The translations under genes were made by a program, and so were the position numbers. The notes beneath the pieces are model-generated. The model did not search any database, was not told where the DNA came from, and saw only the letters and a list, made by a program, of their open reading frames with translations. From an uncultured Candidatus Saccharibacteria bacterium (GTDB taxonomy: Bacteria; Patescibacteriota; Minisyncoccia; Phycocordibacterales; CAIZLB01): a stretch of DNA of 64,000 bases. Numbering within the stretch: the stretch's first letter is position 1; every line of letters begins with the position of its first letter. Positions 22,245 through 59,166 of this stretch are shown here, piece after piece. The stretch is from positions 8,430 through 72,429 of the forward strand of contig CAYVEK010000001.1 of the NCBI GenBank assembly GCA_964450605.1, read 5' to 3'.

Positions 22245-22565
22245 GGTTTTTGTGTGTTTTGCTTAAATTATCTTTGTTTTTATAGGGATATTGTAGCAGG
22301 GGGATGGGGATGTGGCAAGGGGGTTAGATGATTATGTAAATGTTTTCAGGCCAGTGAATCATTACGATGATATTGACATATTGGATAATTATGATATGCA
22401 ATATATAATATAGAGTACATTGAAATTTTGCGAGATCACCGTAGCTACAAGCTGTCTAATTCCTAGACATTTTCTAGCTACGGTGACACAGGTTATCCTC
22501 TGGCAAATCACAATCATAGGACACGTTCAAAAGAACACGTCCACATCCAATAGAACAAACACGTC

Positions 22566-23168
22566 ATGGCTGACACGTCTGAAATGATTAGTCTCCCGCA
22601 GGCCCTCGAACTCGCGCATGCGCTTCTGCGCAACGGTTGGAAGCCAGCCGATGTGAAGTGGCTCAGCGTTGGCGAACGCCTCGCAGCGGTCCTTCCTCTG
22701 GTGCGAGGAACGGCTGAGATCAAGATCGTCAAACATCTGATTGATCTTGCAGTCGATCCCTTCGTTCCCGACAGTTGCAAAGGCGTCGAGCATCACGAAA
22801 AAGGCGCCACAGACTTCGAATGGGATCCGGCCAAGGTTCGCCTCCATATCTCCGAGAACCAGAAAGACAGCAAGAAGGTCGAAGGTAACGAGCTCCGCAA
22901 GGAGCTCGCTAAAGAAATGTCGTTCAATGCCAACCTTCTGGACTACCTCCTGAAGAATCCGCACCTCATTCCCGAGGAGTGGAAGAAAGATGAGGCGGGC
23001 AACACCCGCTACATCTACATCTACTTCTGGGGGACGATCTACCGCGGCTCCGATGACTACCAGTGTGTCCGCTACCTCTACTGGAATGGTACGGAGTGGG
23101 ACTGGGACGTCGATTGGCTCGACAGTCATTGGGAATCAAGCTACCCTGCTGCTTGTCTCGCAAAGTAG
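22566..23168 (+). CDS. hypothetical protein (200 aa) encoded on a GC-rich island; Trp/Tyr/Asp-rich C-terminus
   Basis: Clean 603-nt ORF with GC3-rich codon usage (CGC/CTC/GAG) unlike its flanks; about 55% GC against about 38%; own terminator downstream; no family recognised. Confidence 0.55.
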   Translation: MADTSEMISLPQALELAHALLRNGWKPADVKWLSVGERLAAVLPLVRGTAEIKIVKHLIDLAVDPFVPDSCKGVEHHEKGATDFEWDPAKVRLHISENQKDSKKVEGNELRKELAKEMSFNANLLDYLLKNPHLIPEEWKKDEAGNTRYIYIYFWGTIYRGSDDYQCVRYLYWNGTEWDWDVDWLDSHWESSYPAACLAK

Positions 23169-23258
23169 GCTAGACTTCAAGTCTTGTCCACTTCGGTCTG
23201 GCCCTTCGGCGATTTATCGCCAAACGCTCAGGAAGATACAGCGTTCGTAAACTTCCGG

Positions 23259-23286
23259 CCCTGTGCATTCGCGCAGGGTCTTTTCA
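23259..23286 (+). terminator. intrinsic terminator of the island-1 gene
   Basis: CCCTGTGC-ATTC-GCGCAGGG, 8-bp stem with one GU wobble, then TCTTTTC. Confidence 0.6.
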
Positions 23287-23425
23287 TATATAAATTATGA
23301 CAGGTATTTAAACTGTGTCTAAGAGTAGAATATTCGCCAATCTTGATAACGATTCAAAACCGCAGGCCTTAAAATTTTATTTCGGACTTTTAAAACATGG
23401 AAACATCAGAAAACTGCAAGATCTT

Positions 23426-24499
23426 TTACAAAACCCCCTTAAACACTCCAACAATCTTTTCCAAAAACTTATCCCACAAACTTCGATTTAACCACTCGGC
23501 GTATTTTACAGTTTCTGAATTTTCATGAAGTTTCGCTATGTCTTTTTTTACAGTTTCAACAGTTATATCATCTCGCACAAAAACTCCATTTTCAAAGTTG
23601 TATCGAAGTGAGATATTGTCGAGGTTTAGACTTCCTATAAAAACAGTATCGTCCAGTATGGATACTTTTGCATGTAACATGTCTCTACAAAGGTGAATAC
23701 GTACTCCTTGTTTTAATAGTTTTGTAAAATATGTCCGAGCTGCTATATCAACCGTTCGATAGTCGGTATTTTGAGGAAGGTATATATCAACTTCAACCCC
23801 TTTTCTTTTTGCGCGTAAAATTTCAGATACAAATTGTCTACCAGGTACAAAATACGGAGCGATGAGAGTTATGCTTCGAGTTGCTGATTTTAGTAGTTTC
23901 AAATACGTATAATATATGTGACGTGCTCGCAAAAGAGGGGCTTGATATGCGTATTGATGCGTATGAAGTGGGTCAAGACTGTAAGAAAACTTTTTTTCAT
24001 GATGAAAACGAATACTTCGTCTCTTTGCATATCGAAGCATGTTTTTAAAATCAGCTACTGCTCGGTGTATCACATGCTCATTTGTAATAGGTAGGTTTGC
24101 ATCAATCCAGTTTTGTGTTTTATTTCCTATGCACCATCCTCCCATGTACACAATCTTATTATCTATGATAAGCGATCGTTTATGATTGCGAAAAAACCAT
24201 GAGCGTTTGTTTTTGAAGCTCCAAGGAGTGAGCCAGTTAAAATATTCTATATGAACTCCAGCAGTTGTTGCATTTTTTTCTTCGCGACTACCGCTCAAGT
24301 CTCGTGCACCGAGTGCGTCGAAAAGACAGTGTACTTTAACTCCATGTGAAGCTTTATGTGCGAGAGCTTTTATAAAACTTTTGCCGATTTCGTCGTTGTC
24401 AAAATAAAACGTCTGAAAAAATATTTCATGTTCTGCCTGCTGTATTGCAGAGAGGAGTTCGTCTACGATATCAGATGTTTTTTTGACAATAGGGTTCAT
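23426..24499 (-). CDS. phospholipase D / cardiolipin synthase-like protein (two HKD-type motifs)
   Basis: Second motif LHAKVSILDD...IGSLNLD (HxKxxxxD...GSxN); first motif degenerate (NHKRSLIIDN). Confidence 0.65.
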   Translation of the reverse strand: MNPIVKKTSDIVDELLSAIQQAEHEIFFQTFYFDNDEIGKSFIKALAHKASHGVKVHCLFDALGARDLSGSREEKNATTAGVHIEYFNWLTPWSFKNKRSWFFRNHKRSLIIDNKIVYMGGWCIGNKTQNWIDANLPITNEHVIHRAVADFKNMLRYAKRRSIRFHHEKKFSYSLDPLHTHQYAYQAPLLRARHIYYTYLKLLKSATRSITLIAPYFVPGRQFVSEILRAKRKGVEVDIYLPQNTDYRTVDIAARTYFTKLLKQGVRIHLCRDMLHAKVSILDDTVFIGSLNLDNISLRYNFENGVFVRDDITVETVKKDIAKLHENSETVKYAEWLNRSLWDKFLEKIVGVFKGVL

Positions 24500-24502
24500 G
24501 TA

Positions 24503-25690
24503 TTATTTTACTTTAGCAAAATTGAATTTACCTTTTTGTAATACATCTCCGGATGATAGGGTAGTAGACATATCTTCAACGACAGAACCATTTATCTTTA
24601 CACCTTTTTCCTCAAGAACTCTTCGAGCTTCACTTTTACTTTTCACAAGATTACTTTGAACGAGTGCACTCACTACGTCTTTTTCTGCACCTAGTTGAAA
24701 TTCAGGAACGTCTGTAGGTATCTCTTTGTCTTGTATGGTTTTCTTAAAGTATTCATCAGCCTTGTCTGCTTCAATGTCGCTGTGATACATAGAAACAAGT
24801 GTGTGAGCGAGTTTCTTTTTTGCATCCATCGGATGAAGAGAATTATTTGCAAGTTGTGTTTTTATCTCTTCAACTTCTGCCATAGGTACTCGAGTGAGTA
24901 GTGTAAAATAATCTACGATTAATTCGTCTTGCATACTCATAACTTTTCCATACATTGTATTTGGATCATCCATCAAGTTTATAGTGTTACCCCAACTTGA
25001 ACTCATTTTTCTTCCGTCGAGTCCGTTTACGATAGGGCACATCATTATCTGTTGTTCTGGTTGTCCATATAGCTTTTGTAGTGTTCGTCCAGCAAGTAGG
25101 TTGAATCGCTGGTCAGTTCCTCCGAGCTCAACATCTGCATGTAGTGCTACAGAGTCGTATCCTTGCATAAGAGGATACATAAGTTCACGCATAGATACTC
25201 GAGATCCACTCTCTATACGTTTTGCTATAAGTTCTCGACCAATAAAATCATTGATAGAAAAAGCATCAGCCTGTTTACATACTTCAAGATATGACAACTT
25301 TGACAACCATTCACTGTTTCGTACAACTTCAACTTTTGATATGTCGAGTATTTTTCCAACCTGCTCGAGATATGTTTCCATATTTTTCTTAACCGTATCT
25401 TCGACAAGCATTGGTCGTTCTGCGTTTTTATCAGAAGTATCACCGATAACTCCAGTAAAATCACCGATCAAAAAGATAACTTGATGACCAAGATTTTGAA
25501 AATCTCGAAGCTTTAAAAGGGGGATAGTTCGTCCTAGGTGGATGTTTGGACTTGTAGGGTCTATACCGAGTTTTATACGAAGAGGTTTACCTTCGGCAAG
25601 TTTCTTTTTAAGTTCTTCTTCGTGAATGATCTCAACAACACCTCGTTTGAGCAGGGTGGTTGTCAGGTCGTCTGTATGTGTATGTGCCAT
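24503..25690 (-). CDS. tyrS: tyrosyl-tRNA synthetase with C-terminal S4-like domain
   Basis: HIGH-region HLGR, GHQVIFLIGDFTGVIGD, KMSSS motif, C-terminal S4-like RRVLEEKGVKINGSVV. Confidence 0.85.
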   Translation of the reverse strand: MAHTHTDDLTTTLLKRGVVEIIHEEELKKKLAEGKPLRIKLGIDPTSPNIHLGRTIPLLKLRDFQNLGHQVIFLIGDFTGVIGDTSDKNAERPMLVEDTVKKNMETYLEQVGKILDISKVEVVRNSEWLSKLSYLEVCKQADAFSINDFIGRELIAKRIESGSRVSMRELMYPLMQGYDSVALHADVELGGTDQRFNLLAGRTLQKLYGQPEQQIMMCPIVNGLDGRKMSSSWGNTINLMDDPNTMYGKVMSMQDELIVDYFTLLTRVPMAEVEEIKTQLANNSLHPMDAKKKLAHTLVSMYHSDIEADKADEYFKKTIQDKEIPTDVPEFQLGAEKDVVSALVQSNLVKSKSEARRVLEEKGVKINGSVVEDMSTTLSSGDVLQKGKFNFAKVK

Positions 25691-25780
25691 AATATATGTA
25701 GTATGCGGGTTTTTGGAGTGGGTGGCAAGGGGGTACTTTATATACTGAAATCCCGCTAAAACTATGCTACTATCAAAAAT

Positions 25781-28760
<2,980 letters not shown>

Positions 28761-28767
28761 ACCGTGC

Positions 28768-29003
28768 AAATAAAAACCCGCCCTCAGTCGTTCTTTGTGT
28801 GCTTGTTCGATACCCAAACCAAATATGCACTGAAACGAAAGAGGGACGGGCTCCATTTGAAAGAGGGGGTACCTACTAAACACTGATCTGTAGCCGCAAG
28901 CAACCAATAACGGTTCCAAATGCTCTGGTTCATCAGCAACCCCTCTTTCTCCCGAAAGTTCTTGTTACATATAATCATAGTGTGTTTATGACTTATATGC
29001 AAA
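28768..29003 (-). ncRNA. candidate structured RNA (second of two minus-strand transcripts in the tgt/dnaE spacer)
   Basis: Minus strand: long-range helix AAAGAGGGG/CCCCUCUUU; 3' helix CCCGUCCCUC (28841-50) / GAGGGCGGG (28777-85) followed by UUUUUAUUU; no credible ORF. Confidence 0.3.
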
Positions 29004-29141
29004 TAAAAAAAGGACCGCATCGCGCGTTTCCACGCGATGCGGTTGGAATTCGGGTCACAGGCGAAGTGACCCAAATCCACTTTTGGAACGGCCCGGCGAC
29101 CAAACCGGGACCGTTGTTCCTCGTTACCAACAAAGTGCTGT
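29004..29141 (-). ncRNA. candidate small RNA (about 138 nt, three GC-rich hairpins) with own promoter and terminator
   Basis: Minus strand: hairpins GGAACAACGGUCCCGG...CCGGGCCGUUCC and GGGUCAC-uucgccu-GUGACCC; terminator CCGCAUCGCG-uggaaacg-CGCGAUGCGG (10-bp perfect stem, 29016-29043) then UCCUUUUUUUAUUU; no start codon or ORF in the transcript. Confidence 0.5.
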
Positions 29142-29146
29142 CAACA

Positions 29147-29175
29147 AGTATAACCTTGCGGTTAAGTATTGTCAA
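29147..29175 (-). promoter_or_regulatory. near-consensus sigma70-type promoter for the candidate sRNA
   Basis: Minus strand TTGACA (29175-29170), 17-nt spacer, TATACT (29152-29147). Confidence 0.5.
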
Positions 29176-29185
29176 CATATTGTGT

Positions 29186-29223
29186 AAAAAAATGAACCCG
29201 GGGGAACCTGTGTCCCCCCGGGT
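29186..29223 (-). terminator. intrinsic terminator of dnaE
   Basis: Minus strand GACCCGGGGGGAC-acag-GUUCCCCCGGG then UUCAUUUUUUU. Confidence 0.6.
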
Positions 29224-29318
29224 CTGGCAGCTGGGAGAAAGTCTGACCTTAATCCCTTCGCACCAAGCGGTGGACGGATGGGCAGCTCCAGCATCTATTT
29301 TGTATCATATCCAAGATA

Positions 29319-32300
29319 TCATGTCAATCTCTTCGCATGCTCATACACCAACCCCTTTTTATCCTCACGTTCAGACACTTTTCCTTTGAGAACGATACAG
29401 GCTTCGTTTTGTATGATGGCTCGAGCATCAGCTACCTGCTTAGGGAAGACAACAACCTCTATCTCTCCAGATAAATCCTTGAGCGTAAAGAAAATAATTT
29501 TTTTCATCGGGTCTTTTTTTGTTGGAATCTCTTTGACATTTTCAACGATCCCTCCAAGTATGTATGTTTTTTCTTCTTTTCCTTCAACTTTTACTTTGGC
29601 TATGTCAGTATCACGACTTTCTAAAATCTTTCTGTATTTATCAAGCGGGTGGCCTGAGATATAAAAACCAAGCAATTCTTTTTCCCACACCAAGTATTGC
29701 TGTTTCTGCGAAAAATCAATTTCTTTTTTAGCATGAACAGTTGTTGTTTCTTTAACAGGTTCTGTTTCAGCAAATAAACTAAAAAGATCTCCTTGTGATA
29801 CATCTTTTTTTGCTTGCTCTCGGTTATAGTCTAGATAACGATCAAGATTATCGAGAAGTTCCATACGATCTCCAAAAGAATCCATAGCACCTGATTTTAT
29901 AAGTGCTTCCATAGATTTTTTATTTAAACTTCTTTCTTGTATTCGTTCGAGGAAATTTTCTATTGTAGTAAATGGCCCATTGTTTTTTCTATTTTCTATA
30001 ATCACATCAGCTATAGCTTCTCCAAAGTTTTTAATACTATATAAACCAAAACGTATAGCATCTTTTTGGACACCGTCCACTTCTTGATAATTTTTAACAA
30101 CGGTAAATGTTCCAAAACTTTCATTGATATCTGGTGGAAGTATAGCGATACTCATACGTCGACACTCTTTTATAGATATAGCTACCGCATCAGTATCTCC
30201 GGCCTCAGCACTCAATATGGCGGCCATGTACTCACTAGGGAAGTTAGCCTTTAGATATGCGGTTATATATGAGACTCGTCCGTACGACACTGAGTGCGCT
30301 TTGTTAAATCCATACGCGGCAAATGGTTCAATCCATTTCCATACATCACGTGCTTTTTGATCAGACCATCCACTATGAGACACGCATCCTTTGATAAATT
30401 TTTCTTTTTGTAAGGCCATCTCTTCAGGAATCTTTTTACCTACAGCTTTTCGAAACTTATCAACTTCACCCCAACTGTATCCCGCGATCTTGTGAGCCAT
30501 CATGAGCAAGTCATCTTGATACACAAGCACTCCATATGTTTTATACAAAATCTCCTCAAGCAGAGGATCGGCATAGGTGATAAGGGAAGGGTTATGTTTT
30601 CGCTCTATATACAACGGGATGAACTGTATGGGTCCAGGTCGATACAAGGCAACCATGGCGTTGATGTCGTGTATTGTCGTTGGTTTAAGTTCAACGAGGT
30701 ATTTTGTCATACCTTCACCGTTTAATTGAAAGAGATCTTCAGTTTCTCCGCGTGCGAGAAGTTCAAATGTTTTTTTATCATCAAGAGGTAAGTTATCGAT
30801 ATCAAGATCAATACCAAAATTTCTCTTAACCATCTGTTTACACTCGAAAATAATTTTCAAGTTTTTTAATCCCAAGAAGTCGAATTTCAAAAGACCGGCT
30901 TCCTCGATAGAGTACATGTCATACTGACTGATGATTTTATTTTCACCTTTTGTATCGTACTGAAGAGCTGTAAAATCAGTAAGCTCTGTGGGAGCTATAA
31001 CCACTCCAGCTGCGTGTACAGAGATGTGACGTGCACAACCTTCAATCTTCTGTGCCATATCTATGATAGTCTTTACATCTATATCTTTCTCGTAGAGTTC
31101 TTTAAGTTCAGGTGTTATTTCAAGTGCGTGTTCTATAGTCATCGGGAAACCTTGAGATCCCATCGGTATGAGTTTAGAGATCTGGTCTCCGAGTGAGTAT
31201 GGATATCCAAGTGCTCGCGCTACATCGCGCACACTTCCTTTAGCAGCCATCGTTCCAAATGTTCCGATCTGTGCCACTTTATCTATGCCGTATTTTCGAC
31301 GAGCATAATCCACCATGTCATCACGTCTGTTATCGGCGTAGTCCATATCGATATCCGGTGCAGAAGGTCGTTCCGGGTTCAAGAAACGTTCAAAAGGAAT
31401 CTGGAATTCAAGAGGGTCTATGTGAGTAATACCAGATAGATATGTCACCATAGATCCAGAAACAGAACCTCGAATGTTTGAGAGGATTTCGTTTTCTTTT
31501 GCAAATGCCAAAAGATCAGACACAATCAAAAAGTAAGGAGAATATCCTTTTGTTTTAATAACTTCAAGTTCGTATTCAACTCGTTGTAAAACTTCAGGTG
31601 TTTTTTCGACATTTCTTTTTTCAAATCCTGCATACACAACATCTCTCAAAGCTTCATCAGCATTTTTTCCTTCAGGAAGTTCTATTTTAGGAAATACCCA
31701 TTTACCAAGTTCTATAACCACATCGCACATATCAGCGATTTTTGTAGTATTTGCAACTGCTTGTTTGAACAGTGTGTCGAGTTCTGGATTTTGTTCATCT
31801 GAAAAAAGTTCATCAACACGAGTGGGGGAGATAAAAGAATAATCAATATCATCTTCTGTAAAACGTTCAGGAGAGTTTGTTTGTACAGACATCATTGTTG
31901 ATCGAGCCTTTTTGTCTTCAGGATCCATGTACAGCACATCGTTTGTTGCAACCGGCTGTATATTGTATTTTTGTATAAAACGTAATACCCGTGATTCGAT
32001 TTGGTTGTCGTCCACGATTTCATTATGGCGAGTTATCTCATAAAACACATTTGGAGCCCCGTATGTATTTTGTAAAAAGGTAAATTCTTTAAGTGCAGAT
32101 TCTTCATCGTCCATCTTGAGCGCATCGGTGACTTTACTATGCAAAAAGGGGACAATGCATATAAAATCGGAATTATATTTTTGTATCAGCTCTGCATCTA
32201 TTCGAGGTTTATAGTAGTAACCTTCGAGGTTTGAATCTGTAACAAGTTTTATAAGATTTAAATATCCTTGGTAGTTCTTTGCCAGCAAAATATGTCGAGT

Positions 32301-32555
32301 TCTTTTGGTATCGAGTCGACCTTCTTTATCATGACGAGTTCTGTTTGCTACATAAAAATCAACACCGATAATAGGTTTTATATTTGCTGATTTGCATTCT
32401 TTGTAAAATTCTATAGCTGCATAGAGGTTTCCGTTGTCAGTAAGCGCTAAAGCATTCATACCATAAGACACTGCTCGTTTAACCAAATCCGGTATTTTAG
32501 GAACTGCCTGCAAGAGACTATAGTGGCTGTGAACATGGAGATGAACGAAAGACAT
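29319..32555 (-). CDS. dnaE: DNA polymerase III alpha subunit
   Basis: 1078 aa; N-terminal PHP domain (MSFVHLHVHSHYSLL) and pol III alpha core. Confidence 0.95.
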   Translation of the reverse strand: MSFVHLHVHSHYSLLQAVPKIPDLVKRAVSYGMNALALTDNGNLYAAIEFYKECKSANIKPIIGVDFYVANRTRHDKEGRLDTKRTRHILLAKNYQGYLNLIKLVTDSNLEGYYYKPRIDAELIQKYNSDFICIVPFLHSKVTDALKMDDEESALKEFTFLQNTYGAPNVFYEITRHNEIVDDNQIESRVLRFIQKYNIQPVATNDVLYMDPEDKKARSTMMSVQTNSPERFTEDDIDYSFISPTRVDELFSDEQNPELDTLFKQAVANTTKIADMCDVVIELGKWVFPKIELPEGKNADEALRDVVYAGFEKRNVEKTPEVLQRVEYELEVIKTKGYSPYFLIVSDLLAFAKENEILSNIRGSVSGSMVTYLSGITHIDPLEFQIPFERFLNPERPSAPDIDMDYADNRRDDMVDYARRKYGIDKVAQIGTFGTMAAKGSVRDVARALGYPYSLGDQISKLIPMGSQGFPMTIEHALEITPELKELYEKDIDVKTIIDMAQKIEGCARHISVHAAGVVIAPTELTDFTALQYDTKGENKIISQYDMYSIEEAGLLKFDFLGLKNLKIIFECKQMVKRNFGIDLDIDNLPLDDKKTFELLARGETEDLFQLNGEGMTKYLVELKPTTIHDINAMVALYRPGPIQFIPLYIERKHNPSLITYADPLLEEILYKTYGVLVYQDDLLMMAHKIAGYSWGEVDKFRKAVGKKIPEEMALQKEKFIKGCVSHSGWSDQKARDVWKWIEPFAAYGFNKAHSVSYGRVSYITAYLKANFPSEYMAAILSAEAGDTDAVAISIKECRRMSIAILPPDINESFGTFTVVKNYQEVDGVQKDAIRFGLYSIKNFGEAIADVIIENRKNNGPFTTIENFLERIQERSLNKKSMEALIKSGAMDSFGDRMELLDNLDRYLDYNREQAKKDVSQGDLFSLFAETEPVKETTTVHAKKEIDFSQKQQYLVWEKELLGFYISGHPLDKYRKILESRDTDIAKVKVEGKEEKTYILGGIVENVKEIPTKKDPMKKIIFFTLKDLSGEIEVVVFPKQVADARAIIQNEACIVLKGKVSEREDKKGLVYEHAKRLT

Positions 32556-32637
32556 GTGGGTTTATTATAGCTGATTTTGGGGTAAGAAAAAACCCTACTT
32601 TTTGTAGGATTTTTTCGATTTCTATGGTTTATTTTTT

Positions 32638-33411
32638 CTACTTCTTACTCAAAAGCTCATCAATGATAGGTGACACAACCTCATAAGGAAGTGCTCCTAG
32701 ACTCTTACCATCACTAGATACAAGAGGTATCTGCTGATCTTTGTATAGTATCACTGTATAAGGTGTTCCTCGTGCGCCAGCCTTAGTTCCTGCATCATAC
32801 GCCTCTTTGATCTTGTCTGCGTATTTACCACTATCAAGACATGCTTGAAACTTCGCTTTATCAACTCCTTGTTTTACAGCGATATCTGTAAGCTTTGAGA
32901 GCACAAGTCCTTCTTTGTTGTGATCTATAGAAGCATACACTGCATCAAGATATGTCCAAAATGCATCTTTTCCAGCAAGTTCATTTACACACTCTGTTGC
33001 TTCAGCTGCTTTGGCAGCATTCTTGTGAAGTGGATCTTTTCCATATGAAAGAGGGAAATGTCGATATACCCAAGCAAACTTTTTGTCTTTTCCATATGCT
33101 TTATATGCCTGTTCCATAGTAACTTGGTATAACTGACAGAATGGGCACTCGATGTCTGAATATTCAACAAAAACAACATCAGCATCTTTGTCTCCTCGTA
33201 TATGATCAACTGAAGATATAGGGGCAACTTCTATCTTTTCTTGTTGTTCAAGTGCTTTGTTTACAAGAGCTGAACCGTCCTTGTTCATGTTTGGTTTATC
33301 GTAATAAAGACCGACTGCTATAAGTGCTCCAGCTATAAGTATAGATATAGGTGTAAGCCATTGAGCTTTATTCATTCTAGGTTGTGATGTTGTTTGTGTT
33401 GTATTTTCCAT
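32638..33411 (-). CDS. DsbA-like thiol-disulfide oxidoreductase, membrane-anchored
   Basis: Thioredoxin-fold CPFC active site (YSDIECPFCQ); N-terminal TM. Confidence 0.7.
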   Translation of the reverse strand: MENTTQTTSQPRMNKAQWLTPISILIAGALIAVGLYYDKPNMNKDGSALVNKALEQQEKIEVAPISSVDHIRGDKDADVVFVEYSDIECPFCQLYQVTMEQAYKAYGKDKKFAWVYRHFPLSYGKDPLHKNAAKAAEATECVNELAGKDAFWTYLDAVYASIDHNKEGLVLSKLTDIAVKQGVDKAKFQACLDSGKYADKIKEAYDAGTKAGARGTPYTVILYKDQQIPLVSSDGKSLGALPYEVVSPIIDELLSKK

Positions 33412-33453
33412 AATGTTTTTGATTATATCAAGTATGTAAAGTGTCAGCTACTT

Positions 33454-34035: not shown

Positions 34036-34040
34036 GAAAG

Positions 34041-34442
34041 CTATTTTAACACATTTTGTTTTTCTTTAAATGTGAAAATAAAATTAGCCGAGAAACTCCA
34101 AATATATACAAGTCCTGCAGCAATGATTCGTGCCCACAATGTTGGAACGTTCCACCATTCGATCATCATATACATAAATCCCATAGTGAGGAGTACACCA
34201 ACAATAGCTATTATTAGAAATAATATATAACCAGTTTTTACATTTTGTTGTGTTCCTTTAAAAACCCAAAGATGATTTATTCCGTAGTTAATAAATGTAG
34301 CAAAAATAAATACAAGAGGCACTGCTATGAGATAGTGCATATGTGCGTATGTAATAAGTACATACAGTAAAGCAAAATCAAATACAAAAGCACTTCCACC
34401 CGCAACGCCGTATTTTAAGAATTTTTTGAAGACTGTAAGCAT
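34041..34442 (-). CDS. GtrA-family membrane protein
   Basis: 133 aa, 4 TM, LKYGVAGGSAFVFDFALLYVL typical of GtrA. Confidence 0.6.
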   Translation of the reverse strand: MLTVFKKFLKYGVAGGSAFVFDFALLYVLITYAHMHYLIAVPLVFIFATFINYGINHLWVFKGTQQNVKTGYILFLIIAIVGVLLTMGFMYMMIEWWNVPTLWARIIAAGLVYIWSFSANFIFTFKEKQNVLK

Positions 34443-34453
34443 GGTTGAGTTTA

Positions 34454-37737: not shown

Positions 37738-37770
37738 CCCGGTATTTTTTCATGTATGCTCTGTATATAT

Positions 37771-38579: not shown

Positions 38580-39719
38580 ATGTGTTTTACTTGTTGTGTG
38601 AATCCACAAGTAATACAAGACGTACATACATTTTTAGAAAGTTTGTTCGAACAAGCTGTGTCTTTAGGTGCGTCTGATATACATATAGATCCACATGAGC
38701 AAACTGTTCATATACGTATGCGTGTTTCAGGAATGTTGCATGAACATAAAACTATTTCAAAAAATAGATTTGATATATGTATAGGAAAGATAAAAGTTTT
38801 GTCTTCACTTCGATCGGATGTGCACGACAGAACTCAGGACGGAAGATTTTATTTTACTGCCAAGTCAGGAGAACGTATTGATATGCGAGTGTCTATTGCT
38901 CCAACTTTTTTTGGAGAAAATTGCGTATTGAGGCTTTTGCGCTCTCATAATAGAAAAAGAAAAAGCTTTTTTGAGTTGGGTATGACAGAGGTTCAGACGT
39001 ATCACTTAAAACAGGCTTTATCAAAAAGTTCAGGACTTGTCATAGTTGCTGGTCCTACGGGGTCTGGTAAGACGAGTACGTTGTATTCTGTGTTGCAGTA
39101 TTTATCGACCGGCATAGATGACGACATAGCCAACCTGGAAGAACATATGGTGACTGATAAAAACATAGTCACAATAGAAGATCCTGTAGAGTCAGTTGTT
39201 TCTAAGACCAGACAGATACAAGTTTCTCCTGATACAGGCTTTGGTTTTAAAGAAGCGTTAAAAGGTATATTAAGACAGGACCCTGATGTTGTTATGATAG
39301 GTGAGATACGAGACAAAGACACAGCACTTGCAGCTATACAAACAGCACTAACAGGCCATCTTGTTTTAACAACTATACATGCTCCAAATGCTTCATCGAT
39401 TATTCCAAGACTTATAGATATGGGTATAGAACCATACCTCATCTCGTCATCTGTGTCACTTATATTGAGTCAACGTTTAGTTAGAGTTTTTGATTATAAT
39501 CTTGGTTTGTATGGAGATCGGGTTGGAGTGTTTGAGATAGTTCCAGTTGATGTCTCTATGAGAGAGCTTATTCATCAAAGAAAAACACCATATGAGATCG
39601 AAAAACATATCTCTGATTCAGGTCATGTTCTTTTACGTGATGCTTGTAGAGATATATATTCCAGACACGTAACAACTGAAGAAGAGATTAACAGGATTAA
39701 CTTAGATATTTTTTTATGA
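38580..39719 (+). CDS. type II secretion / type IV pilus assembly ATPase (GspE/PilB/ComGA-like)
   Basis: Walker A VAGPTGSGKTST and GspE N-terminus (ASDIHIDPHEQTVHIRMRVSGML). Confidence 0.75.
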   Translation: MCFTCCVNPQVIQDVHTFLESLFEQAVSLGASDIHIDPHEQTVHIRMRVSGMLHEHKTISKNRFDICIGKIKVLSSLRSDVHDRTQDGRFYFTAKSGERIDMRVSIAPTFFGENCVLRLLRSHNRKRKSFFELGMTEVQTYHLKQALSKSSGLVIVAGPTGSGKTSTLYSVLQYLSTGIDDDIANLEEHMVTDKNIVTIEDPVESVVSKTRQIQVSPDTGFGFKEALKGILRQDPDVVMIGEIRDKDTALAAIQTALTGHLVLTTIHAPNASSIIPRLIDMGIEPYLISSSVSLILSQRLVRVFDYNLGLYGDRVGVFEIVPVDVSMRELIHQRKTPYEIEKHISDSGHVLLRDACRDIYSRHVTTEEEINRINLDIFL

Positions 39720-40762: not shown

Positions 40763-41928
40763 ACTCAAGAGGATTTTCTTTAATAGAGATTGTTGTAGCG
40801 TTGGCAGTTTTTCTGATCACAACTGTATCAGTTTTATCTTTTTATGATAAAACTTTTTCTAACGCTGAATCTGTTGTGTTTAAACCTTTACAGCTTCTAC
40901 CACAAGCTCTTTCAGAGTATTCGTATGAAAAAAAAGTTTGCCCTGAAAATAGTTTAAACAATGAAGTAAAAGAGATATCTCTGTCTTCTTATATTTCAAC
41001 CTCAACCCGACTTACTGGAATCTTTATAAATAACAACAGACAATTAATCATAACAACAGACTCAGCTTCGACTACTGAAGCAGATGTTTTTATCTTTGAT
41101 ATTGATGAATCATATAACCTATTTTTGGTTAGCAAACTCGATGTCGGTCCTGGTATAACCTCTGCTCGATATATTAGTGATATCTTATATGTGTTAAATA
41201 CAAGCGTATCTTCTCATATAAAATCATTCAAAATATCTCAAAACTCTATCCAGCAAATCTCCTCATTAAAAATACCATCACTCGCTACAAGTTATTCACT
41301 TCCCAAAACGATACTTGTTCGACAAGGAAAAATATTTATAGGCTCAGAAAAAAATAGTGGTGGTGGGGAATTATTTATTTTATCATTCGATTTTAAAACA
41401 GGAGTCATAACATCAATCGACCGAGAGATAGAGATTGGTGGGCAAGTAAATGCTATTGAAAATTATGGTTCGTATATGGTAGTTGCTACAGCCGGAGACC
41501 CAGAACTCAGAATCTTTGATGAACAGGGTGTGTTAGTTAGTTCTTATGATGCTGATCTTGCTCTTGGGAATGGTAAAAGTGTTTTTACACTATATCCGTA
41601 TATGGTGCTCGGCAGAACTATAGGTAGTGGAGAATTGCATGTTTTTAATTTTAAAAATAGTTCAACGACGGAACTTCTTTCTACCGACAGGTTGCACGGA
41701 ACAGCTGATGCTATGGTGAAAACCGATCTCGATAATATATTTGTTTTTACATCAAATACAGAAAAGGAGTTGCAAGTTTGGTCGTATAAAGATATCAATA
41801 AAACCGGAATCCTTCATCATAAATCCGACATTGATTTACCGAACAGAATATCAGCATTTACATGTGATGTATCACATCTATATATAGCTCTAACTCAAAA
41901 TGATTTACCATATGTATACATCAAATAA
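40759..41928 (+). CDS. large pseudopilin-like protein with prepilin-type N-terminus (389 aa)
   Basis: N-terminus MNSRG/FSLIEIVVALAVF (class III signal, Glu at +5). Confidence 0.6.
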   Translation: MNSRGFSLIEIVVALAVFLITTVSVLSFYDKTFSNAESVVFKPLQLLPQALSEYSYEKKVCPENSLNNEVKEISLSSYISTSTRLTGIFINNNRQLIITTDSASTTEADVFIFDIDESYNLFLVSKLDVGPGITSARYISDILYVLNTSVSSHIKSFKISQNSIQQISSLKIPSLATSYSLPKTILVRQGKIFIGSEKNSGGGELFILSFDFKTGVITSIDREIEIGGQVNAIENYGSYMVVATAGDPELRIFDEQGVLVSSYDADLALGNGKSVFTLYPYMVLGRTIGSGELHVFNFKNSSTTELLSTDRLHGTADAMVKTDLDNIFVFTSNTEKELQVWSYKDINKTGILHHKSDIDLPNRISAFTCDVSHLYIALTQNDLPYVYIK

Positions 41929-45524: not shown

Positions 45525-45529
45525 CAGCT

Positions 45530-46273: not shown

Positions 46274-46285
46274 TTTTTAAAATAT

Positions 46286-48313: not shown

Positions 48314-48316
48314 GTT

Positions 48317-48706
48317 TTATAAATTATTTAAACCTAGTGAGAATATTATCGCACAGCCTCCAATGCCTATAATAGCAACAACAAATAGTGTGAGAATTAT
48401 ATTTGCAATGATATTGCCAGGACGATCGGGTAGACGAGGGAATTGAGAAGGATTTATTTCTGTTAGTCTATTTCTTATTTTTTGTATTTTACGAGCATAC
48501 ATACTTCCTATTAGACTACCAAATAGATATACAGTAAAACCAATATTAAATAATGATGCGCCTAATTTAAAAGGTCCATTAAAATGCAAAACTCCTCCTA
48601 AAAGCATTAGTCCTAAGGCTAAAGAGTTTATTTTCTGAAAAAATGCATATTTTTTCTCCAAATACTTGAGTTGATTTTGCAGATCTAATGTTGAATTTGT
48701 ATCCAT
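48317..48706 (-). CDS. small membrane protein, paralog B (129 aa)
   Basis: Shares architecture and C-terminal ...INPSQFPRLPDRPG...IIGIGGCAIIFSLG with the upstream paralog. Confidence 0.5.
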   Translation of the reverse strand: MDTNSTLDLQNQLKYLEKKYAFFQKINSLALGLMLLGGVLHFNGPFKLGASLFNIGFTVYLFGSLIGSMYARKIQKIRNRLTEINPSQFPRLPDRPGNIIANIILTLFVVAIIGIGGCAIIFSLGLNNL

Positions 48707-48734
48707 ATATACTATGTTATCAAATAAAAAACTT

Positions 48735-49157
48735 TTAACCTAAAACAGAACCCCAACCAAAGAAGGCAAAGCATCCTCCAACACCGATAATTGCTAAGGT
48801 TAATAATACTAAAAAAATAGTTCCGAGTACTCCTGCCACACCACGGTGGTATGGTTTAAATCCGGAAGGATTTATAGAGGCTAGTTTATTTTGTAATAAA
48901 TGCGCAGTTGAATTTTTCGAAGATATTTGTATAGAGCCTACTAGAAATAATACCAGTCCAAGAGTGAGGGGGATAAGTCCAACAATCAACGCACTTTCTT
49001 TATCAACCAATAAACTGCAAAGTCCTGCGCCAACAAGCATAAAGAAAAGACCTGCAAGCATAACCCTGTTTGCACTTTGTTTTTTCTGAGTAACTAGATT
49101 TAGTTTCTTTTGAAGATCTTGTGTTTGAGATGTATTTAAATTTGGTTCTATTTCCAT
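48735..49157 (-). CDS. small membrane protein, paralog A (141 aa from ATG 49157)
   Basis: C-terminus ...INPSGFKPYHRGVAG...IIGVGGCFAFFGWG; the track's longer ORF (GTG 49238) would read through the rSAM terminator. Confidence 0.5.
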   Translation of the reverse strand: MEIEPNLNTSQTQDLQKKLNLVTQKKQSANRVMLAGLFFMLVGAGLCSLLVDKESALIVGLIPLTLGLVLFLVGSIQISSKNSTAHLLQNKLASINPSGFKPYHRGVAGVLGTIFLVLLTLAIIGVGGCFAFFGWGSVLG

Positions 49158-49173
49158 ATAGTAAAAGTTTAGC

Positions 49174-49212
49174 AAATAAAAAGTCGCCGGACCAGGTAAA
49201 CTGGTCCGGCGA
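49174..49212 (-). terminator. intrinsic terminator of the radical-SAM gene
   Basis: CGCCGGACCAG-uuuac-CUGGUCCGGCG, 11-bp perfect stem (49185-95 / 49201-11), then UUUUUAUUU on the minus strand. Confidence 0.65.
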
Positions 49213-49237
49213 TTCGTTGATGAGGTAGACGGTTGCA

Positions 49238-50671
49238 CTAAAGCATCAAATCCGACAGACCGTTATAGAACTCACAAAACGAGTCCAAACGACCATCTTC
49301 TCCCATGACGGCTGTACAACATCTGTCTGTACGGTTACAGCTCCAGTTGTGGGCCGGACCACCAAATGTCATGAAGGGTTTTATCGATAGTCTGAACGCT
49401 TGAAGCGCATCCTCCATACTTACATGCATCGATCCGGCTTCGGTAGTCTCGCAACCGCAGAGGTGAACATCTTCTTGGTCGTAATTTATCCTGTCGGCCA
49501 AGAATGATGTTAGGGGCAAGCGCTCAGCAAGAGGCATGTCTCTGACCATACAGGTTACAGTCTTCCGATTTATCCAACCAATATGTTGACAGTTTGGATC
49601 TCCGCAAGGGAGCGGGAATATGCTGTTTTCATCCAGCACGCCATTCGCCTGATGAATCAGGTGGTTTATGACGTGTCCGGAGTCTACAAGTGCGGAGAAT
49701 TCTCCGTCAATTCTTCCTCCGCCGAAACGAGGCTGGTAGTTGACCCCTTTGACCACTGGGCATGACATGCCCAACAGGGCCACTTTCCACAAGTCGCAAA
49801 GGTTTTCGTGTACCACTGTCATGGCTAGTGTGGTGGACACACCTGTGGTCGGTAATTTTTCCAGGACTCTGAGTTCGTGGGTATGGAAGTTGCCCCCGGC
49901 AAGCACGCCTTGTGCCGGCGTTGATGGTCCGTTGAATTTGAGGTAGATGTGCACTTTGCGAAGATTCGCGATGGCTTTTAACTGTTCCGCAAAGTTGGCG
50001 TCCAACAACTTTGTTCCGTTGGTGTTGACCATCACCACGTGGATGTCTGGATTTTCCTGACACCATGTGAGTATGTCAAAGAATTGAGGATGAAGAGTTG
50101 GTTCACCTCCAGACAGCTGGAGGATTTCGATATAACCCCTCTTGTTTAGCAGTTTTTGAATCCTCGACTTTACTTCGTCTAAGGGAATAAAGGTGACATC
50201 GCCACCTCCTGCTTTGGGCGAAGCGGCCAAACATGTGGGACAACTCCAGTTGCAGGAACGCACTATCTCCAACAAGACAACGCAAGGGCTGAGTTTGTCG
50301 AAGTGGTCACCTTGTCCAACTTGCGGATCTTCCATAGTGGCATTTTTGCCAAGTGTAGATACTGCTGCATCGTCGCTGGACCTGCAGGCACAGGTTGCTC
50401 CGCAGGCTCCATCAGTAGGCTCTGCTTTGTAGAAAAAACGAGCGTCTGACATGACAATCGTTTGTGCGATGTGTTGGCATGCTGTGCAGGCAAATTGCAT
50501 ACGGATACGCTCTGGTTGTCTGTCTTCAAAAACCCCGCTGTACATGTAGCGAGAGGGTCCAAGAGGATCTTTTTCTTCAGATGCTGGGACTTTGACCCAG
50601 GTGGCAGATGTGCGCACCCTGCAGTTCGGACATACGGTAAAACCGCGAGAAATGATAGGGTAAGTTTGCAT
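49238..50671 (-). CDS. radical SAM enzyme (SPASM/twitch-like) with N-terminal Cys4 zinc-ribbon/rubredoxin-like module, on a GC-rich island
   Basis: CNWSCPTC (CxxxCxxC); SGGEPTL SAM-binding motif; VMVNTNGTKL; N-terminal CPNC...CTAC; C-terminal CGDPNC...C, CGCETT, CNRTDRCC clusters; about 52% GC. Confidence 0.8.
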   Translation of the reverse strand: MQTYPIISRGFTVCPNCRVRTSATWVKVPASEEKDPLGPSRYMYSGVFEDRQPERIRMQFACTACQHIAQTIVMSDARFFYKAEPTDGACGATCACRSSDDAAVSTLGKNATMEDPQVGQGDHFDKLSPCVVLLEIVRSCNWSCPTCLAASPKAGGGDVTFIPLDEVKSRIQKLLNKRGYIEILQLSGGEPTLHPQFFDILTWCQENPDIHVVMVNTNGTKLLDANFAEQLKAIANLRKVHIYLKFNGPSTPAQGVLAGGNFHTHELRVLEKLPTTGVSTTLAMTVVHENLCDLWKVALLGMSCPVVKGVNYQPRFGGGRIDGEFSALVDSGHVINHLIHQANGVLDENSIFPLPCGDPNCQHIGWINRKTVTCMVRDMPLAERLPLTSFLADRINYDQEDVHLCGCETTEAGSMHVSMEDALQAFRLSIKPFMTFGGPAHNWSCNRTDRCCTAVMGEDGRLDSFCEFYNGLSDLML

Positions 50672-50728
50672 GGTAGTGGTGATTGTTAAAGTTCTTGTTG
50701 TTTCGGTAGCAAACCTAGCCTATCACAC

Positions 50729-51466
50729 CTACACCTTCCTCATCAATCGAAGCAGACTTACTCCGTACCCTAAAACTACTATCGCACTTGTCCACTGAAT
50801 AGCAGTTAATCCTCCAATGAGTGGATGTACTGGTTTAATAAATTCAACAAAAAATCTAAAACCAAAATATCCTACAGCAAAAAGTCTAAAAAATATTCCA
50901 CTACCTACCAGATCACTTCTTTTTTTCATAAATAAACTTAGGCCAATCCATAAAAAGCCAACAACAAGTATTTCGTATAAAGATGTTGGATGTCGAAGTA
51001 GTCCATCTCCTTGATCCATGGCCCAAGGAAGAGAAGAAACAAGGCCAACAGTTTGATCTCTTACACCAACAAGAAAACAGCCAATGCGTCCGATAATTAC
51101 ACCAAGGGCAATCGGTCCAACCATAATGTCTCCGACAGAAGTTTTAATTTTTAAAAACTTTTTTACAATCTCTATTCCTAGTATTCCTCCGGCAATACCA
51201 CCAGCAACAGTCTTAACCGCATAATAGTACATCCAATGTGGAGGATTGAAAAATAATTCAGGACGCTCAAGCGCTGCTATAAGTCGGGAACCTATAAGTG
51301 CTCCAGCTGCAGCACCAATAAGAAGGATGGTTTTTTGTGATACGGATGATTCACTTGAATTCACTTTTTTATAGATACGAGAATAATACCAAGCGGGAAT
51401 AAGTAGAGAAAAAGTATCTGTTAAAAAATGAACCCATAATGGAGCATGGCCGGGGGTAAATAACAT
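50729..51466 (-). CDS. lgt: prolipoprotein diacylglyceryl transferase
   Basis: GRIGCF and LRHPTSLYE Lgt signatures; 245 aa polytopic. Confidence 0.8.
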   Translation of the reverse strand: MLFTPGHAPLWVHFLTDTFSLLIPAWYYSRIYKKVNSSESSVSQKTILLIGAAAGALIGSRLIAALERPELFFNPPHWMYYYAVKTVAGGIAGGILGIEIVKKFLKIKTSVGDIMVGPIALGVIIGRIGCFLVGVRDQTVGLVSSLPWAMDQGDGLLRHPTSLYEILVVGFLWIGLSLFMKKRSDLVGSGIFFRLFAVGYFGFRFFVEFIKPVHPLIGGLTAIQWTSAIVVLGYGVSLLRLMRKV

Positions 51467-51541
51467 AATAATATTATTGCATTTGAGTTTTAATTAATCT
51501 AGGCAATCCGTTAAGGGTTAAATTTATGTTATAATCTAAAA

Positions 51542-52396: not shown

Positions 52397-52447
52397 ATAT
52401 ATCATAGGCAGAGTGTAGTGCACGTACTTTTGTGATATTATCAGACT

Positions 52448-55645: not shown

Positions 55646-55716
55646 GATAAAACAATGATTATGCCTATATAGCTAGGTAGCACAGCGTTGATATAGTTGG
55701 TATAATAAGAGACATT

Positions 55717-57837: not shown

Positions 57838-57875
57838 AAAGGCGGGTAGGGGTATGTGGATAACTTGTCATTTAG

Positions 57876-57903
57876 TTGACAGGTTATCTTTATGTTGTAT
57901 ACT
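57876..57903 (+). promoter_or_regulatory. near-consensus sigma70-type promoter upstream of the island-3 gene
   Basis: TTGACA (57876-81), 16-nt spacer, TATACT (57898-903); about 65 nt upstream of ATG 57970. Confidence 0.4.
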
Positions 57904-57969
57904 TAAGTCAGTGCCATATTCGCGCACCTTGAAATATTGTCGTCTGTAAAGCGACCTTCAGGGTGTTAG

Positions 57970-59049
57970 ATGTGGTCTCCAATTCAACTTATGAACTCAA
58001 CATCAGCAGCGGTTTTCCGTCTTGTTGTTTTGGTCTTGATGATCCTGTTCACAGCAGGGGCCTCAAAGGCTGAGACCTACAAAGCGGTTGTTACCGATTT
58101 TAGCTTGAGTTTTAATCCGCCGGATCCTCTAGATCCATTCAAGAACTCAAGTTCTAACCTGCACATGACGGACATGTCGCAGGTTTCGGCCGAAACGACG
58201 GTGTACTTCTCCGTTCGTTTTCGGTTTCTCGGGGATACTTCGGGCCAGTGGCTCTCTGTGAGTCAGCCGAACTTTCCCGGCAGTAACTCCTTCACGATGA
58301 TGGGTCAGAAGGAGCAGGGTGGTGGTGTACGCTACCCAAACGGTCTCGGAGGTGCTCAAAACATCTCTATTGCGGGTTCGGTCTACACTGGCTACGACTA
58401 TCCGAAGAATCCAAATCCTACAACAGGTGGGGCGTGGATCTACGGCAAAGACGTCGCGGGGAATATCGTCACCCCAACCGGGAGTCCGATCAAGGATCCT
58501 GGTGCCGTGCCGTTCAATGGCGGGGCCTATATGGTCAACTCTAACCCCAATCTTCGGGTATACGAGTTTTCCGTTATCGGAGCCCGTCGGAAGTTCGGCT
58601 CGTCGTTTGTGTCAGGGGTTAATAACCTCAGGGCTCAAGCCGCCCTGACCGGCGCTAAGTTCAACCTCTTTGTTGACGTGACAAGCAGTATTGGGGTCGA
58701 CTCGGTACTAGGCCCGACAGAAGGGTGCAAGTGCTATCTTCAGTATCCTGAGTGGTTGCGCTTCCCAACGATCTATGTCGGCGATCAGTTTGGTCCGGTC
58801 AAACTCGACCTTCAAATACTGTCGGTTGGAAATTTCCTGATCAAAAATGGTCGCTTGTCGACCATGATCCTGCAAAGGTCGGGAGATCTTCGTAACTGGT
58901 ACACAGTACCAGCGGTCGATTACTCGATCTCAAATCTGGTCAACGGCGACACCGCCCTGACCATGATCGGATTAGGAAGTCAAACCACTCACCTGTCCAT
59001 CCCTCCGCAGGACGGGCCAAACTGCTTCTACCGCCTCGCGTACCCATAA
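57970..59049 (+). CDS. hypothetical secreted protein (359 aa) on a GC-rich island
   Basis: GC3-rich codon usage; signal peptide (AAVFRLVVLVLMILFTAGASKA); Gly/Asn/Pro-rich; no family recognised. Confidence 0.55.
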   Translation: MWSPIQLMNSTSAAVFRLVVLVLMILFTAGASKAETYKAVVTDFSLSFNPPDPLDPFKNSSSNLHMTDMSQVSAETTVYFSVRFRFLGDTSGQWLSVSQPNFPGSNSFTMMGQKEQGGGVRYPNGLGGAQNISIAGSVYTGYDYPKNPNPTTGGAWIYGKDVAGNIVTPTGSPIKDPGAVPFNGGAYMVNSNPNLRVYEFSVIGARRKFGSSFVSGVNNLRAQAALTGAKFNLFVDVTSSIGVDSVLGPTEGCKCYLQYPEWLRFPTIYVGDQFGPVKLDLQILSVGNFLIKNGRLSTMILQRSGDLRNWYTVPAVDYSISNLVNGDTALTMIGLGSQTTHLSIPPQDGPNCFYRLAYP

Positions 59050-59121
59050 CGCGCGGGGCACAGCCACAGACGACACCTACACGGAACACCGCCCCAACTG
59101 GCGCGGTGTTGCAGAAAAACG

Positions 59122-59166
59122 AAACCGCCGGGGTCCTTCATTGGATCCCCGGCGGGTTTTTTCGTT
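59122..59166 (+). terminator. intrinsic terminator of the island-3 gene
   Basis: CCGCCGGGG-tccttcattggat-CCCCGGCGG, 9-bp perfect stem, then GTTTTTTCGTTT. Confidence 0.65.

Follow-up and report, generated by a model that had tools for sequence, protein, structure and literature searches.

Three GC-rich single-gene islands in a low-GC Patescibacteria chromosome: unrelated genes with a persistent, gene-specific GC excess

Classical horizontally acquired genomic islands undergo compositional amelioration over time. In replacement-type flexible genomic islands, hypervariable surface-protein loci are exchanged via homologous recombination in conserved flanks. Here, we compare these systems, integron gene cassettes and diversity-generating retroelements (DGRs) with three GC-rich single-gene islands, termed I1, I2 and I3, in a stretch of 64,000 nucleotides from contig CAYVEK010000001.1 (assembly GCA_964450605.1, positions 8,430–72,429), referred to below as the window. 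The Patescibacteria-restricted DGRs constitute DGR clade 2 of Roux et al. (2021, PMC8144416), and Wu et al. reported that ~20% of whole DGRs differ from their host in GC content by 5% or more, which was taken as horizontal gene transfer (HGT). Compositional outliers are routinely read as recent HGT, and HGT surveys of Patescibacteria depend on that reading. The three textbook-looking islands described here appear instead to be long-resident or clade-internal genes.

I1 resembles the targets of DGR clade 2 in being a full-length homologue (48–67% identity) of proteins with a variable region (VR) of ~120 nt, an adenine-mismatched template repeat (TR), Avd and a reverse transcriptase (RT), and in having neither a transmembrane segment nor a Pfam domain (PMC8144416). 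Unlike these targets, the copy in the window has no TR, Avd or RT. I3 is reminiscent of replacement-type islands, since its slot, promoter, leader and terminator are constant while the coding sequences are unalignable between flanks of 95–98% identity, and since it combines a predicted signal peptide with a location among surface-protein and sortase genes. It differs from them in that the unit is a single coding sequence and in that every allele is strongly GC-rich against an AT-rich host. All three islands share an atypical GC content and codon usage with classical genomic islands, and I1 is also variably present among relatives. In contrast to classical islands, they have no integrase, tRNA site or direct repeats, their nearest homologues belong to the same phylum, and the composition of I2 and I3 is unameliorated despite synonymous saturation. 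As in integron gene cassettes, single open reading frames (ORFs), promoter-less or self-contained, are followed by a structured 3′ element; however, the window contains no IntI-like gene, I1 and I3 have promoters of their own, and the 3′ elements are ordinary terminators consisting of a hairpin and a T-run.

The three coding sequences, in window coordinates and with the GC content of their third codon positions (GC3), are:

22566–23168, + strand: I1 coding sequence, 200 aa, member of a DGR variable-protein family, GC3 0.687
49238–50671, − strand: I2 coding sequence, 477 aa, radical SAM enzyme, GC3 0.521
57991–59049, + strand: I3 coding sequence, 352 aa from the second ATG (359 aa from 57970), predicted secreted all-beta protein, GC3 0.606

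Persistence and gene specificity of the GC excess

Pfam annotation of essentially all window ORFs of at least 100 aa revealed a typical core region, with a ribosomal protein operon, secY, adk, map, infC-rpmI-rplT, tyrS, thrS, tgt, dnaE, hisS, truB, pilB/pilC, a pilin, pheST, lgt, gyrB, a sortase, rpsP and mreB. We favor an explanation in which the window is part of a low-GC Patescibacteria chromosome (Paceibacteria/Parcubacteria-type), its GC-rich segments are three unrelated accessory genes, and their GC excess is a maintained, gene-specific property rather than the scar of a recent import. The probability that we assign to this explanation as a whole is about 0.55, a joint figure for all its parts.

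The window has a GC content of 0.381 and a median ORF GC3 of 0.26 (median absolute deviation 0.028). Among its ORFs of at least 100 aa, I1, I2 and I3 are the strongest GC3 outliers (0.69, 0.52 and 0.61, respectively), and the three GC-rich single-gene islands described in the initial annotation are thus real. At a resolution of 100 nt, the GC content of each rises at the start codon and falls again past the terminator. No motifs, repeats or paralogues common to the three islands were found.

I1 had been described as an orphan protein; it instead has at least 946 homologues, all of which, where named, belong to Patescibacteria (Parcubacteria, Vogelbacteria, Minisyncoccia and Andersenbacteria). 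Among GTDB species representatives, 80 loci were identified, essentially all in Patescibacteria metagenome-assembled genomes. The I1 protein itself has no match in Pfam, NCBIfam or PHROG. We assign it to a DGR variable-protein family because the 3′ ends of its homologues form a VR paired with an adenine-mismatched TR. In one Minisyncoccia locus (L014), a TR, a bAvd gene and an RVT_1 gene lie past the homologue P0079, and all 16 mismatches between its VR (the last 121 nt of the gene) and the TR fall at TR adenines. A TR that differs from the VR only at adenines is present in 39 of the 78 species loci of the I1 family.

The mean GC3 of the I1 family across 78 species is 0.70, compared to 0.445 for flanking ORFs (Wilcoxon p = 4e-14), with an excess above 0.05 in 75 species and above 0.15 in 59. 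Regression of the target on its host gave target = 0.51 + 0.42 × host, and the excess extends to the highest-GC hosts (0.84–0.88 vs 0.61–0.65; L030, L056, L061 and L083). It is also specific to the target. In the subset of 20 loci where an RT gene adjoins the target, the target has a GC3 of 0.643, against 0.427 in the host, 0.412 in RT and 0.371 in Avd. The target ranks higher at all 20 loci (p = 2e-6), and no difference was seen between RT and host (p = 0.31). Family members without an adjacent RT have an equal excess, and the non-VR part of the genes is enriched as well. Another DGR target family, represented in the sister strain L005, has a GC3 of 0.70 vs 0.22–0.37. Likewise, I2 is GC-rich in all three loci where it was compared, and I3 in all five (five alleles, GC3 0.50–0.65 vs flanks of 0.27–0.35). 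In the DGR and Patescibacteria literature searched, we found no mention of a target-specific GC3 excess over the RT, Avd and host of the same element. Relative to known kinds of element, the persistent gene-specific GC excess, best shown for DGR targets, is new, as is the precise single-gene slot and cassette behavior without mobility genes described below.

At four-fold degenerate sites of conserved residues, I2 orthologues and I3 alleles have identities of 0.16–0.40, compared to ~0.25 expected from composition. Synonymous sites are therefore saturated between the copies of I2 and between those of I3. Despite this saturation, the GC content of the four-fold sites (GC4) is 0.39–0.62 in the I2 and I3 copies, compared to 0.13–0.35 in lgt, so that inherited composition offers no explanation for these two genes. 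If general, a gene-specific excess such as that of the DGR targets would mean that composition-based HGT calls in Patescibacteria genomes are biased and that DGR targets and other fast-evolving interaction genes are under an unrecognised nucleotide-level constraint.

The three loci and their turnover

The features of the I1 locus are:

22317–22323, no strand assigned: left arm AAGGGGG of the putative PLD terminator hairpin, split by the insertion; right arm CCCCCTT at ~23433–23439
22324–23426, + strand: I1 unit (leader, coding sequence, 3′ untranslated region (3′UTR), terminator and AT-rich tail), a 1103-bp insertion relative to the empty site of L007
22436–22486, + strand: inverted repeat in the leader, 23-nt arms, 87% complementary
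22521–22578, + strand: four ACACGT repeats across the start codon, spaced by 14, 24 and 14 nt
23041–23161 (approximate), + strand: VR-equivalent region, mapped from the 121-nt VR of P0079 and by alignment
23257–23280, + strand: predicted terminator hairpin, 10 pairs including 2 G-T wobbles, followed by TTTTC

L007, which is 79–88% identical to the window, represents the empty site, with position 22323 joined to 23427 by only AAAGC. Two sister strains (L005 and L006) are 99.2% identical to the window in infC-rplT and diverge from it exactly at 22323. Their slot is occupied by a different GC-rich gene of 248 aa, with a GC3 of 0.70 and 26% identity to I1. In L005, the VR of this gene (685–799) differs from a TR (186–300) at 14 positions, all of them TR adenines; the slot (L005 1–1583, L006 1–1420) thus holds an apparently active DGR target of another family. 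The junction sequences place the insertion inside what we read as the terminator hairpin of the PLD gene, upstream of infC. No target-site duplication was found at the junction.

No part of 22324–23426 has a second copy in the window that could serve as a TR. The window also contains no RT-type YxDD motif, no tblastn match to the RT or Avd of L014, and no RT or Avd by Pfam, and the I1 stop codon lies only 258 nt from the PLD gene. Within these 64 kb, I1 stands alone: it is a DGR variable-protein gene accompanied by neither TR nor Avd nor RT. It would represent a DGR target that has retained the leader of its family, a VR-like 3′ end, the 3′UTR and the terminator, placed in a PLD-hairpin slot. 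A distant relative lacks any gene in this slot, and in the sister strains it is filled by an apparently active DGR target from another family.

The stem equivalent to the leader repeat of I1, followed by a CCTCTGGCA-like box, is also found upstream of homologues. ACACGT occurs 18 times in the window, with four of the occurrences within 58 nt at the I1 start, and the motif is kept upstream of many family members. The whole leader (window 22436–22578; homologues L025–L063) is conserved phylum-wide and comprises the stem, the CCTCTGGCA-like box, an imperfect GACAnGTTC/GAACAnGTC pair and the ACACGT repeats, the last of which extend across the start codon into the first codons (M-x-D-T). The design resembles an operator or an RNA element.

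Conservation within the family extends to the 3′UTR and its terminator hairpin, and in the active DGRs the hairpin is placed between the VR and the TR. In the window, the GC-rich hairpin lies 89 nt past the I1 stop codon and is followed by a T-run. It resembles a terminator and not the cruciform adjacent to the initiation of mutagenic homing (IMH) site that has been described at the VR of DGRs (PMC5758913). The two distinct DGR target families have a common 3′UTR design, in which short repeated CACTTnGG / CCTTnGA(C)C-like motifs sit between the stop codon and the GC-rich terminator, with the TR transcription unit beyond (window 23169–23256; L005 ~560–656 in gene orientation; L027, L028 and L037). 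Homologues of the C-terminal two-thirds of I1 are also encoded on five IMG/VR viral contigs (L105–L109) with a contig GC of 0.31–0.54, and in every one the GC3 of the I1-like gene is higher than that of the contig.

A second single-gene variable slot is located nearby, between an LDcluster4 gene and rplT (window 20213–20958). Its ORF (20257–20955, + strand, 232 aa) is AT-rich with a GC3 of 0.185 and has no Pfam, NCBIfam or PHROG match. The gene is missing from five sister contigs (L004, L005, L006, L009 and L010), where 20212 is joined to 20959, and is replaced by a DUF2238 gene in L008.

The features of the I3 locus are:

57876–57903, + strand: predicted promoter, TTGACA, 16 nt, TATACT; conserved in all six aligned loci
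57904–57990, + strand: leader with a TTCnnGCACCTTGA box, a hairpin (57939–57955) and a GGGTGTT box
57990–59066, + strand: replaceable cassette, the coding sequence and 17 nt past it, unalignable with L001
59085–59164, + strand: 3′UTR hairpin (59085–59110) and predicted terminator (59122–59158) with a T-run, conserved between strains

A locus from another sample (L001) matches the window at 98% identity as far as 57989 and at 95% from 59067 on. The gene between these shared flanks is unalignable with I3, has a GC3 of 0.65, and encodes a product with 37% amino acid identity to I3. The promoter, leader, 3′UTR and terminator are common to both loci, and in the alignment the leader hairpin is retained across loci though its stem sequence varies. 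The terminator has a perfect 9-bp CCGCCGGGG/CCCCGGCGG core and a 13-nt loop, and is flanked by a T-run on one side and an A-run on the other. More distant loci (L017, L018 and L191) carry I3 homologues of 32–47% identity in the same slot, with a GC3 of 0.50–0.64 compared to 0.27–0.35 in their flanks; in L191, the homologue is followed by its own GC-rich hairpin and T-run.

I3 appears to be restricted to one clade. A word-indexed search identified four relatives, and 11 were identified when 1.84 billion representatives were searched exhaustively with a profile; a protein-pattern scan of JGI metagenomes had no match. A query with the GyrB C-terminus retrieved 80 metagenomic loci, and only the closest (93% identity) has an I3 homologue. 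In the other 79, I3 is absent and gyrB adjoins a convergent CARDB-like gene, which represents the empty site. The AlphaFold2 (AF2) model of I3 (pLDDT 79) suggests an all-beta protein behind a signal peptide, with weak Ig-like matches; its earlier description as a secreted protein is consistent with this prediction. We take I3 to be a secreted, beta-rich protein confined to one clade and encoded between gyrB and a convergent CARDB gene. Its coding region behaves as an allelic cassette that is swapped between strains, while the promoter and leader before it and the terminator after it are conserved. We rejected I3 as a DGR target, as there is no TR-like repeat and the alleles differ along their whole length.

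Two minor features were observed around the cassette. The leader may contain a short upstream ORF (window 57904–57996; L001 2935–3100). In L001 it reads ATGTGGTCTCCACTTCAACTCACACCATTATGA, encodes 10 aa and overlaps the main start codon; in the window this ATG shares the frame of the main ORF. Additionally, a perfect 10-nt inverted pair, TGTCGTCTGT (57938–57947) and ACAGACGACA (59066–59075), brackets the cassette. Its right arm begins where homology to L001 resumes and is only partly conserved in L001. The pair was not accepted as a terminal inverted repeat since, by our own estimate, about one such pair is expected by chance in the 1.7-kb region.

The turnover of I1 and I3 could proceed by homologous recombination in the conserved flanks, for which mobility genes would not be needed. 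In agreement with the initial annotation, no mobility genes, tRNA attachment sites or direct repeats are associated with the islands. No integrase, transposase or recombinase was found by Pfam annotation among window ORFs of at least 100 aa, the sole tRNA of the window is tRNA-Leu(CAA) at 15822–15905, and neither direct repeats flanking the islands nor target-site duplications or terminal inverted repeats were found at them. The I1 slot and the I3 cassette are thus clean natural cases of single-gene replacement without mobility machinery. Of the repeated gene-sized acquisitions proposed earlier, the insertion or replacement of units that carry their terminators holds for I1 and I3, and the high-GC donor is not supported. 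The distribution among relatives differs for each gene: I1 is sporadic, I3 is clade-wide with swapped alleles and absent farther out, and I2 is syntenic in three lineages.

I2 differs from the other two islands in its setting. Its terminator is:

49184–49212, − strand: predicted I2 terminator, perfect 12-bp stem, 5-nt loop, then CTTTTTATTT

The start of I2 lies 57 nt past lgt (50729–51466). Because this gap contains no promoter-like site, I2 is probably the distal gene of the lgt operon, co-transcribed with lgt, and not an autonomous unit with a promoter of its own. Its identification as a radical SAM enzyme is supported by a PF04055 match above the gathering score (55.3 bits vs a cut-off of 29.5, residues 135–298) that includes the CxxxCxxC motif (CNWSCPTC). 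The best NCBIfam matches, TrsS (112.6 vs a cut-off of 490) and Tes, a tetraether lipid synthase (74.3 vs 450), place it near the MJ0619/TrsS/Tes-like radical SAM enzymes, although both scores are far below the curated cut-offs for these equivalogs. We know of no description of a constant lgt linkage for MJ0619/TrsS/Tes-like families. The closest relatives of I2 are only six proteins, all Patescibacterial, with 48–56% identity, one of them labelled Candidatus Pacebacteria. These are followed by a large set with 38–43% identity from Verrucomicrobiota and others, in which PF23545 accompanies PF04055 and some members are named ‘7,8-dihydro-6-hydroxymethylpterin dimethyltransferase’.

The order lgt-radical SAM gene is retained in two other lineages, L020 (Lgt 66% amino acid identity) and L193 (Lgt 71%). 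The radical SAM gene has a GC3 of 0.45 in L020 and 0.60 in L193, compared to 0.21–0.39 in its neighbors, and is followed in each by its own GC-rich terminator. This synteny suggests that I2 has been the downstream partner of lgt since before the divergence of three Paceibacteria lineages. Two small genes follow the radical SAM gene in L020, as in the window, and a single small gene in L193. In the window, these are two small paralogous membrane proteins 3′ of I2 (48317–49160, − strand) with counterparts in L020. A listed ORF of 167 aa with a GTG start at 49238 passes through the I2 terminator, and therefore its true start is probably the ATG of MEIEPNL at ~49157.

A GC-rich stem-loop followed by a T-run is found 3′ of the stop codon, on the coding strand, in all three islands, and each is a predicted intrinsic (Rho-independent) terminator. 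The long perfect stems reported earlier reduce to that of I2 (12 bp), while the hairpin and T-run are present at all three. A strict scan of the whole 64 kb for hairpins of at least eight perfect pairs, at least six of them G-C, with a T-rich tail gave only two matches, the I2 terminator and a non-coding hairpin at 29014–29043. The native dnaE gene also ends in a GC-rich hairpin and T-run.

Causes and competing explanations

As a tentative best guess, we attribute the GC excess to selection on the coding sequence or mRNA. These seem to be the constrained object because the GC step lies at the start codon and the co-inherited leaders are AT-rich. Third-position frequencies are A 0.36, T 0.38, C 0.12 and G 0.14 for the window host, and A 0.11, T 0.20, C 0.41 and G 0.28 for I1. 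C at third positions (C3) is the most enriched class in the I1 family (0.40 vs 0.23 in the host). In a broader and equally provisional form, which we hold with distinctly less than even confidence, a gene-specific force would keep certain Patescibacteria genes 0.2–0.4 GC3 above their host, against AT-biased mutation and through synonymous saturation. It would act chiefly on DGR variable-protein genes, and also on the cassette-swapped secreted protein and the lgt-linked radical SAM gene, while sparing RT and Avd. The force could be selection on mRNA or codons (for example, resistance to an AU-directed RNase or toxin, or deliberately non-optimal translation) or a conversion bias during cassette exchange.

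Several other causes were considered and rejected. Adenine-specific depletion by DGR activity does not fit, as non-VR third positions lose A and T alike (A/T 0.71 vs 0.82 in the host), solo and RT-linked copies have equal excess, and C3 is the main gainer. A codon bias of highly expressed genes would be expected in ribosomal-protein genes, which have a low GC3 (0.16–0.29), the lowest of the window. Turnover alone is not sufficient, given that the strain-variable gene at 20257–20955 is AT-rich. Import of a whole DGR cassette from a GC-rich donor is inadequate as the sole cause, since RT and Avd are host-like. Finally, the GC range of the five viral contigs with I1-like genes (0.31–0.54) does not mark phages as a GC-rich reservoir.

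A number of results weigh against our own explanation. The low GC3 of ribosomal-protein genes is a misfit to classical translational selection for high expression. GC content at the first and second codon positions is also somewhat elevated in the island genes, which fits a pervasive mutational or foreign-origin effect. I1 is unsaturated at four-fold sites compared to L026 and L027 (0.56 identity vs 0.33 expected), and a recent horizontal spread of I1 itself is therefore likely. It is possible that a DGR elsewhere in the 295-kb source contig makes I1 a remote rather than a stand-alone target. Foldseek comparison of the AF2 model of I1 (pLDDT 85) with the PDB gave no match below E = 2, and a profile search against PDB sequences returned nothing relevant to the C-type lectin fold expected for the VR domain of a DGR. 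For I2 and lgt, no near-identical contigs were found by exact-protein-sequence look-up, though NCBI and Logan assemblies do contain the exact I2 sequence.

An unlikely alternative to a maintained excess is repeated introduction out of a GC-rich reservoir that has escaped sampling (high-GC Patescibacteria, phages or plasmids), in which each family would reside for most of its history, such that the observed copies are young and unameliorated. At strain level, I1 and I3 have indeed been gained or replaced, the unsaturated four-fold sites of I1 are as expected from young copies, and some high-GC Patescibacteria (L014, L043, L048 and L080) hold the I1 family near their native composition. The atypical GC content of DGRs has also been taken as a sign of HGT (PMC5758913). 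However, the target exceeds its flanks in GC3 even in the highest-GC hosts, and the host-like RT and Avd would require that the target and its matching TR be replaced while these two stay. The five viral contigs do not form a uniform high-GC pool. The I3 family has only 11 members in 1.84 billion representatives, and all copies with known context share the same low-GC clade, slot and AT-rich leader, while I2 has kept its synteny with lgt in three lineages.

GC-biased gene conversion, in which loci that recombine unusually often by cassette exchange would gain GC as heteroduplex repair favors G/C, seems improbable to us. I1 and I3 are demonstrable sites of recombination or turnover, the GC excess is limited to the exchanged unit and missing from neighboring RT and Avd, and the 3′UTRs are GC-rich as well. 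Nevertheless, the co-exchanged leaders and the strain-variable 232-aa gene are AT-rich, and at I2 the only hint of exchange is a mild incongruence in pairwise identities. To our knowledge, a GC3 shift of 0.25–0.4 also far exceeds the effects reported for biased gene conversion in bacteria.

The model of the initial annotation, three recent and independent gains from a high-GC organism, for instance a host cell, perhaps forming a distributed module, is very improbable. The atypical composition and the self-contained units with terminators are in its favor, and the relatives of I2 beyond the six Patescibacterial proteins are from Verrucomicrobiota and others, which makes an ancient extra-phylum origin of I2 plausible. 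The best matches, in contrast, are Patescibacterial for I1 and I2 and confined to its own clade for I3, that is, within the lineage of the window in all three cases, an outcome that the initial annotation had itself named as refuting its model. No closest homologue in a different lineage of matching composition was found for any of them. Synteny is kept across diverged relatives, and the high GC content is retained even though I2 orthologues and I3 alleles are synonymously saturated. The genes have no common sequence, motif or regulation, and are unrelated in function and history; neither a shared donor nor an accessory module is supported.

An assembly or binning chimera, in which GC-rich fragments from other organisms were co-assembled into the contig, might account for the sharp compositional steps, but is excluded for practical purposes because independent assemblies agree: Logan assembly L002 (SRR11567528) is 100% identical to window 19631–33168 (13,538 bp) including I1, ENA and Logan contigs assembled independently from other samples carry the I3 flanks and terminator without a break, the lgt-radical SAM junction recurs in many assemblies, and each of the three proteins is recorded in both NCBI and Logan assemblies.

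Non-coding stretches and gene neighborhood

A compositional scan of the window recovered the three islands as coding outliers and two additional GC-raised stretches, 15439–15820 and 28760–29320, both non-coding. The first (GC ~0.44–0.48) has no convincing ORF and lies between miaA and tRNA-Leu(CAA). An Rfam search of the two stretches gave no credible family, and for the first it reported the tRNA only. The second lies between tgt and dnaE and is most marked at 29005–29320 on the − strand. It consists of the GC-rich terminator of dnaE, a perfect TTGACA-17-TATACT promoter, ~140 nt of GC-rich hairpins and a strong terminator (29043–29014), with a fold z-score of −7.8. This arrangement could be an undescribed small RNA gene.

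A type IV pilus cluster at 38580–41928 encodes a PilB-like T2SSE protein, a PilC-like T2SSF protein and a prepilin with an N_methyl motif, and a CARDB surface protein and a sortase adjoin I3 (59179–61324). Both groups of genes are consistent with a surface or host-interaction neighborhood.

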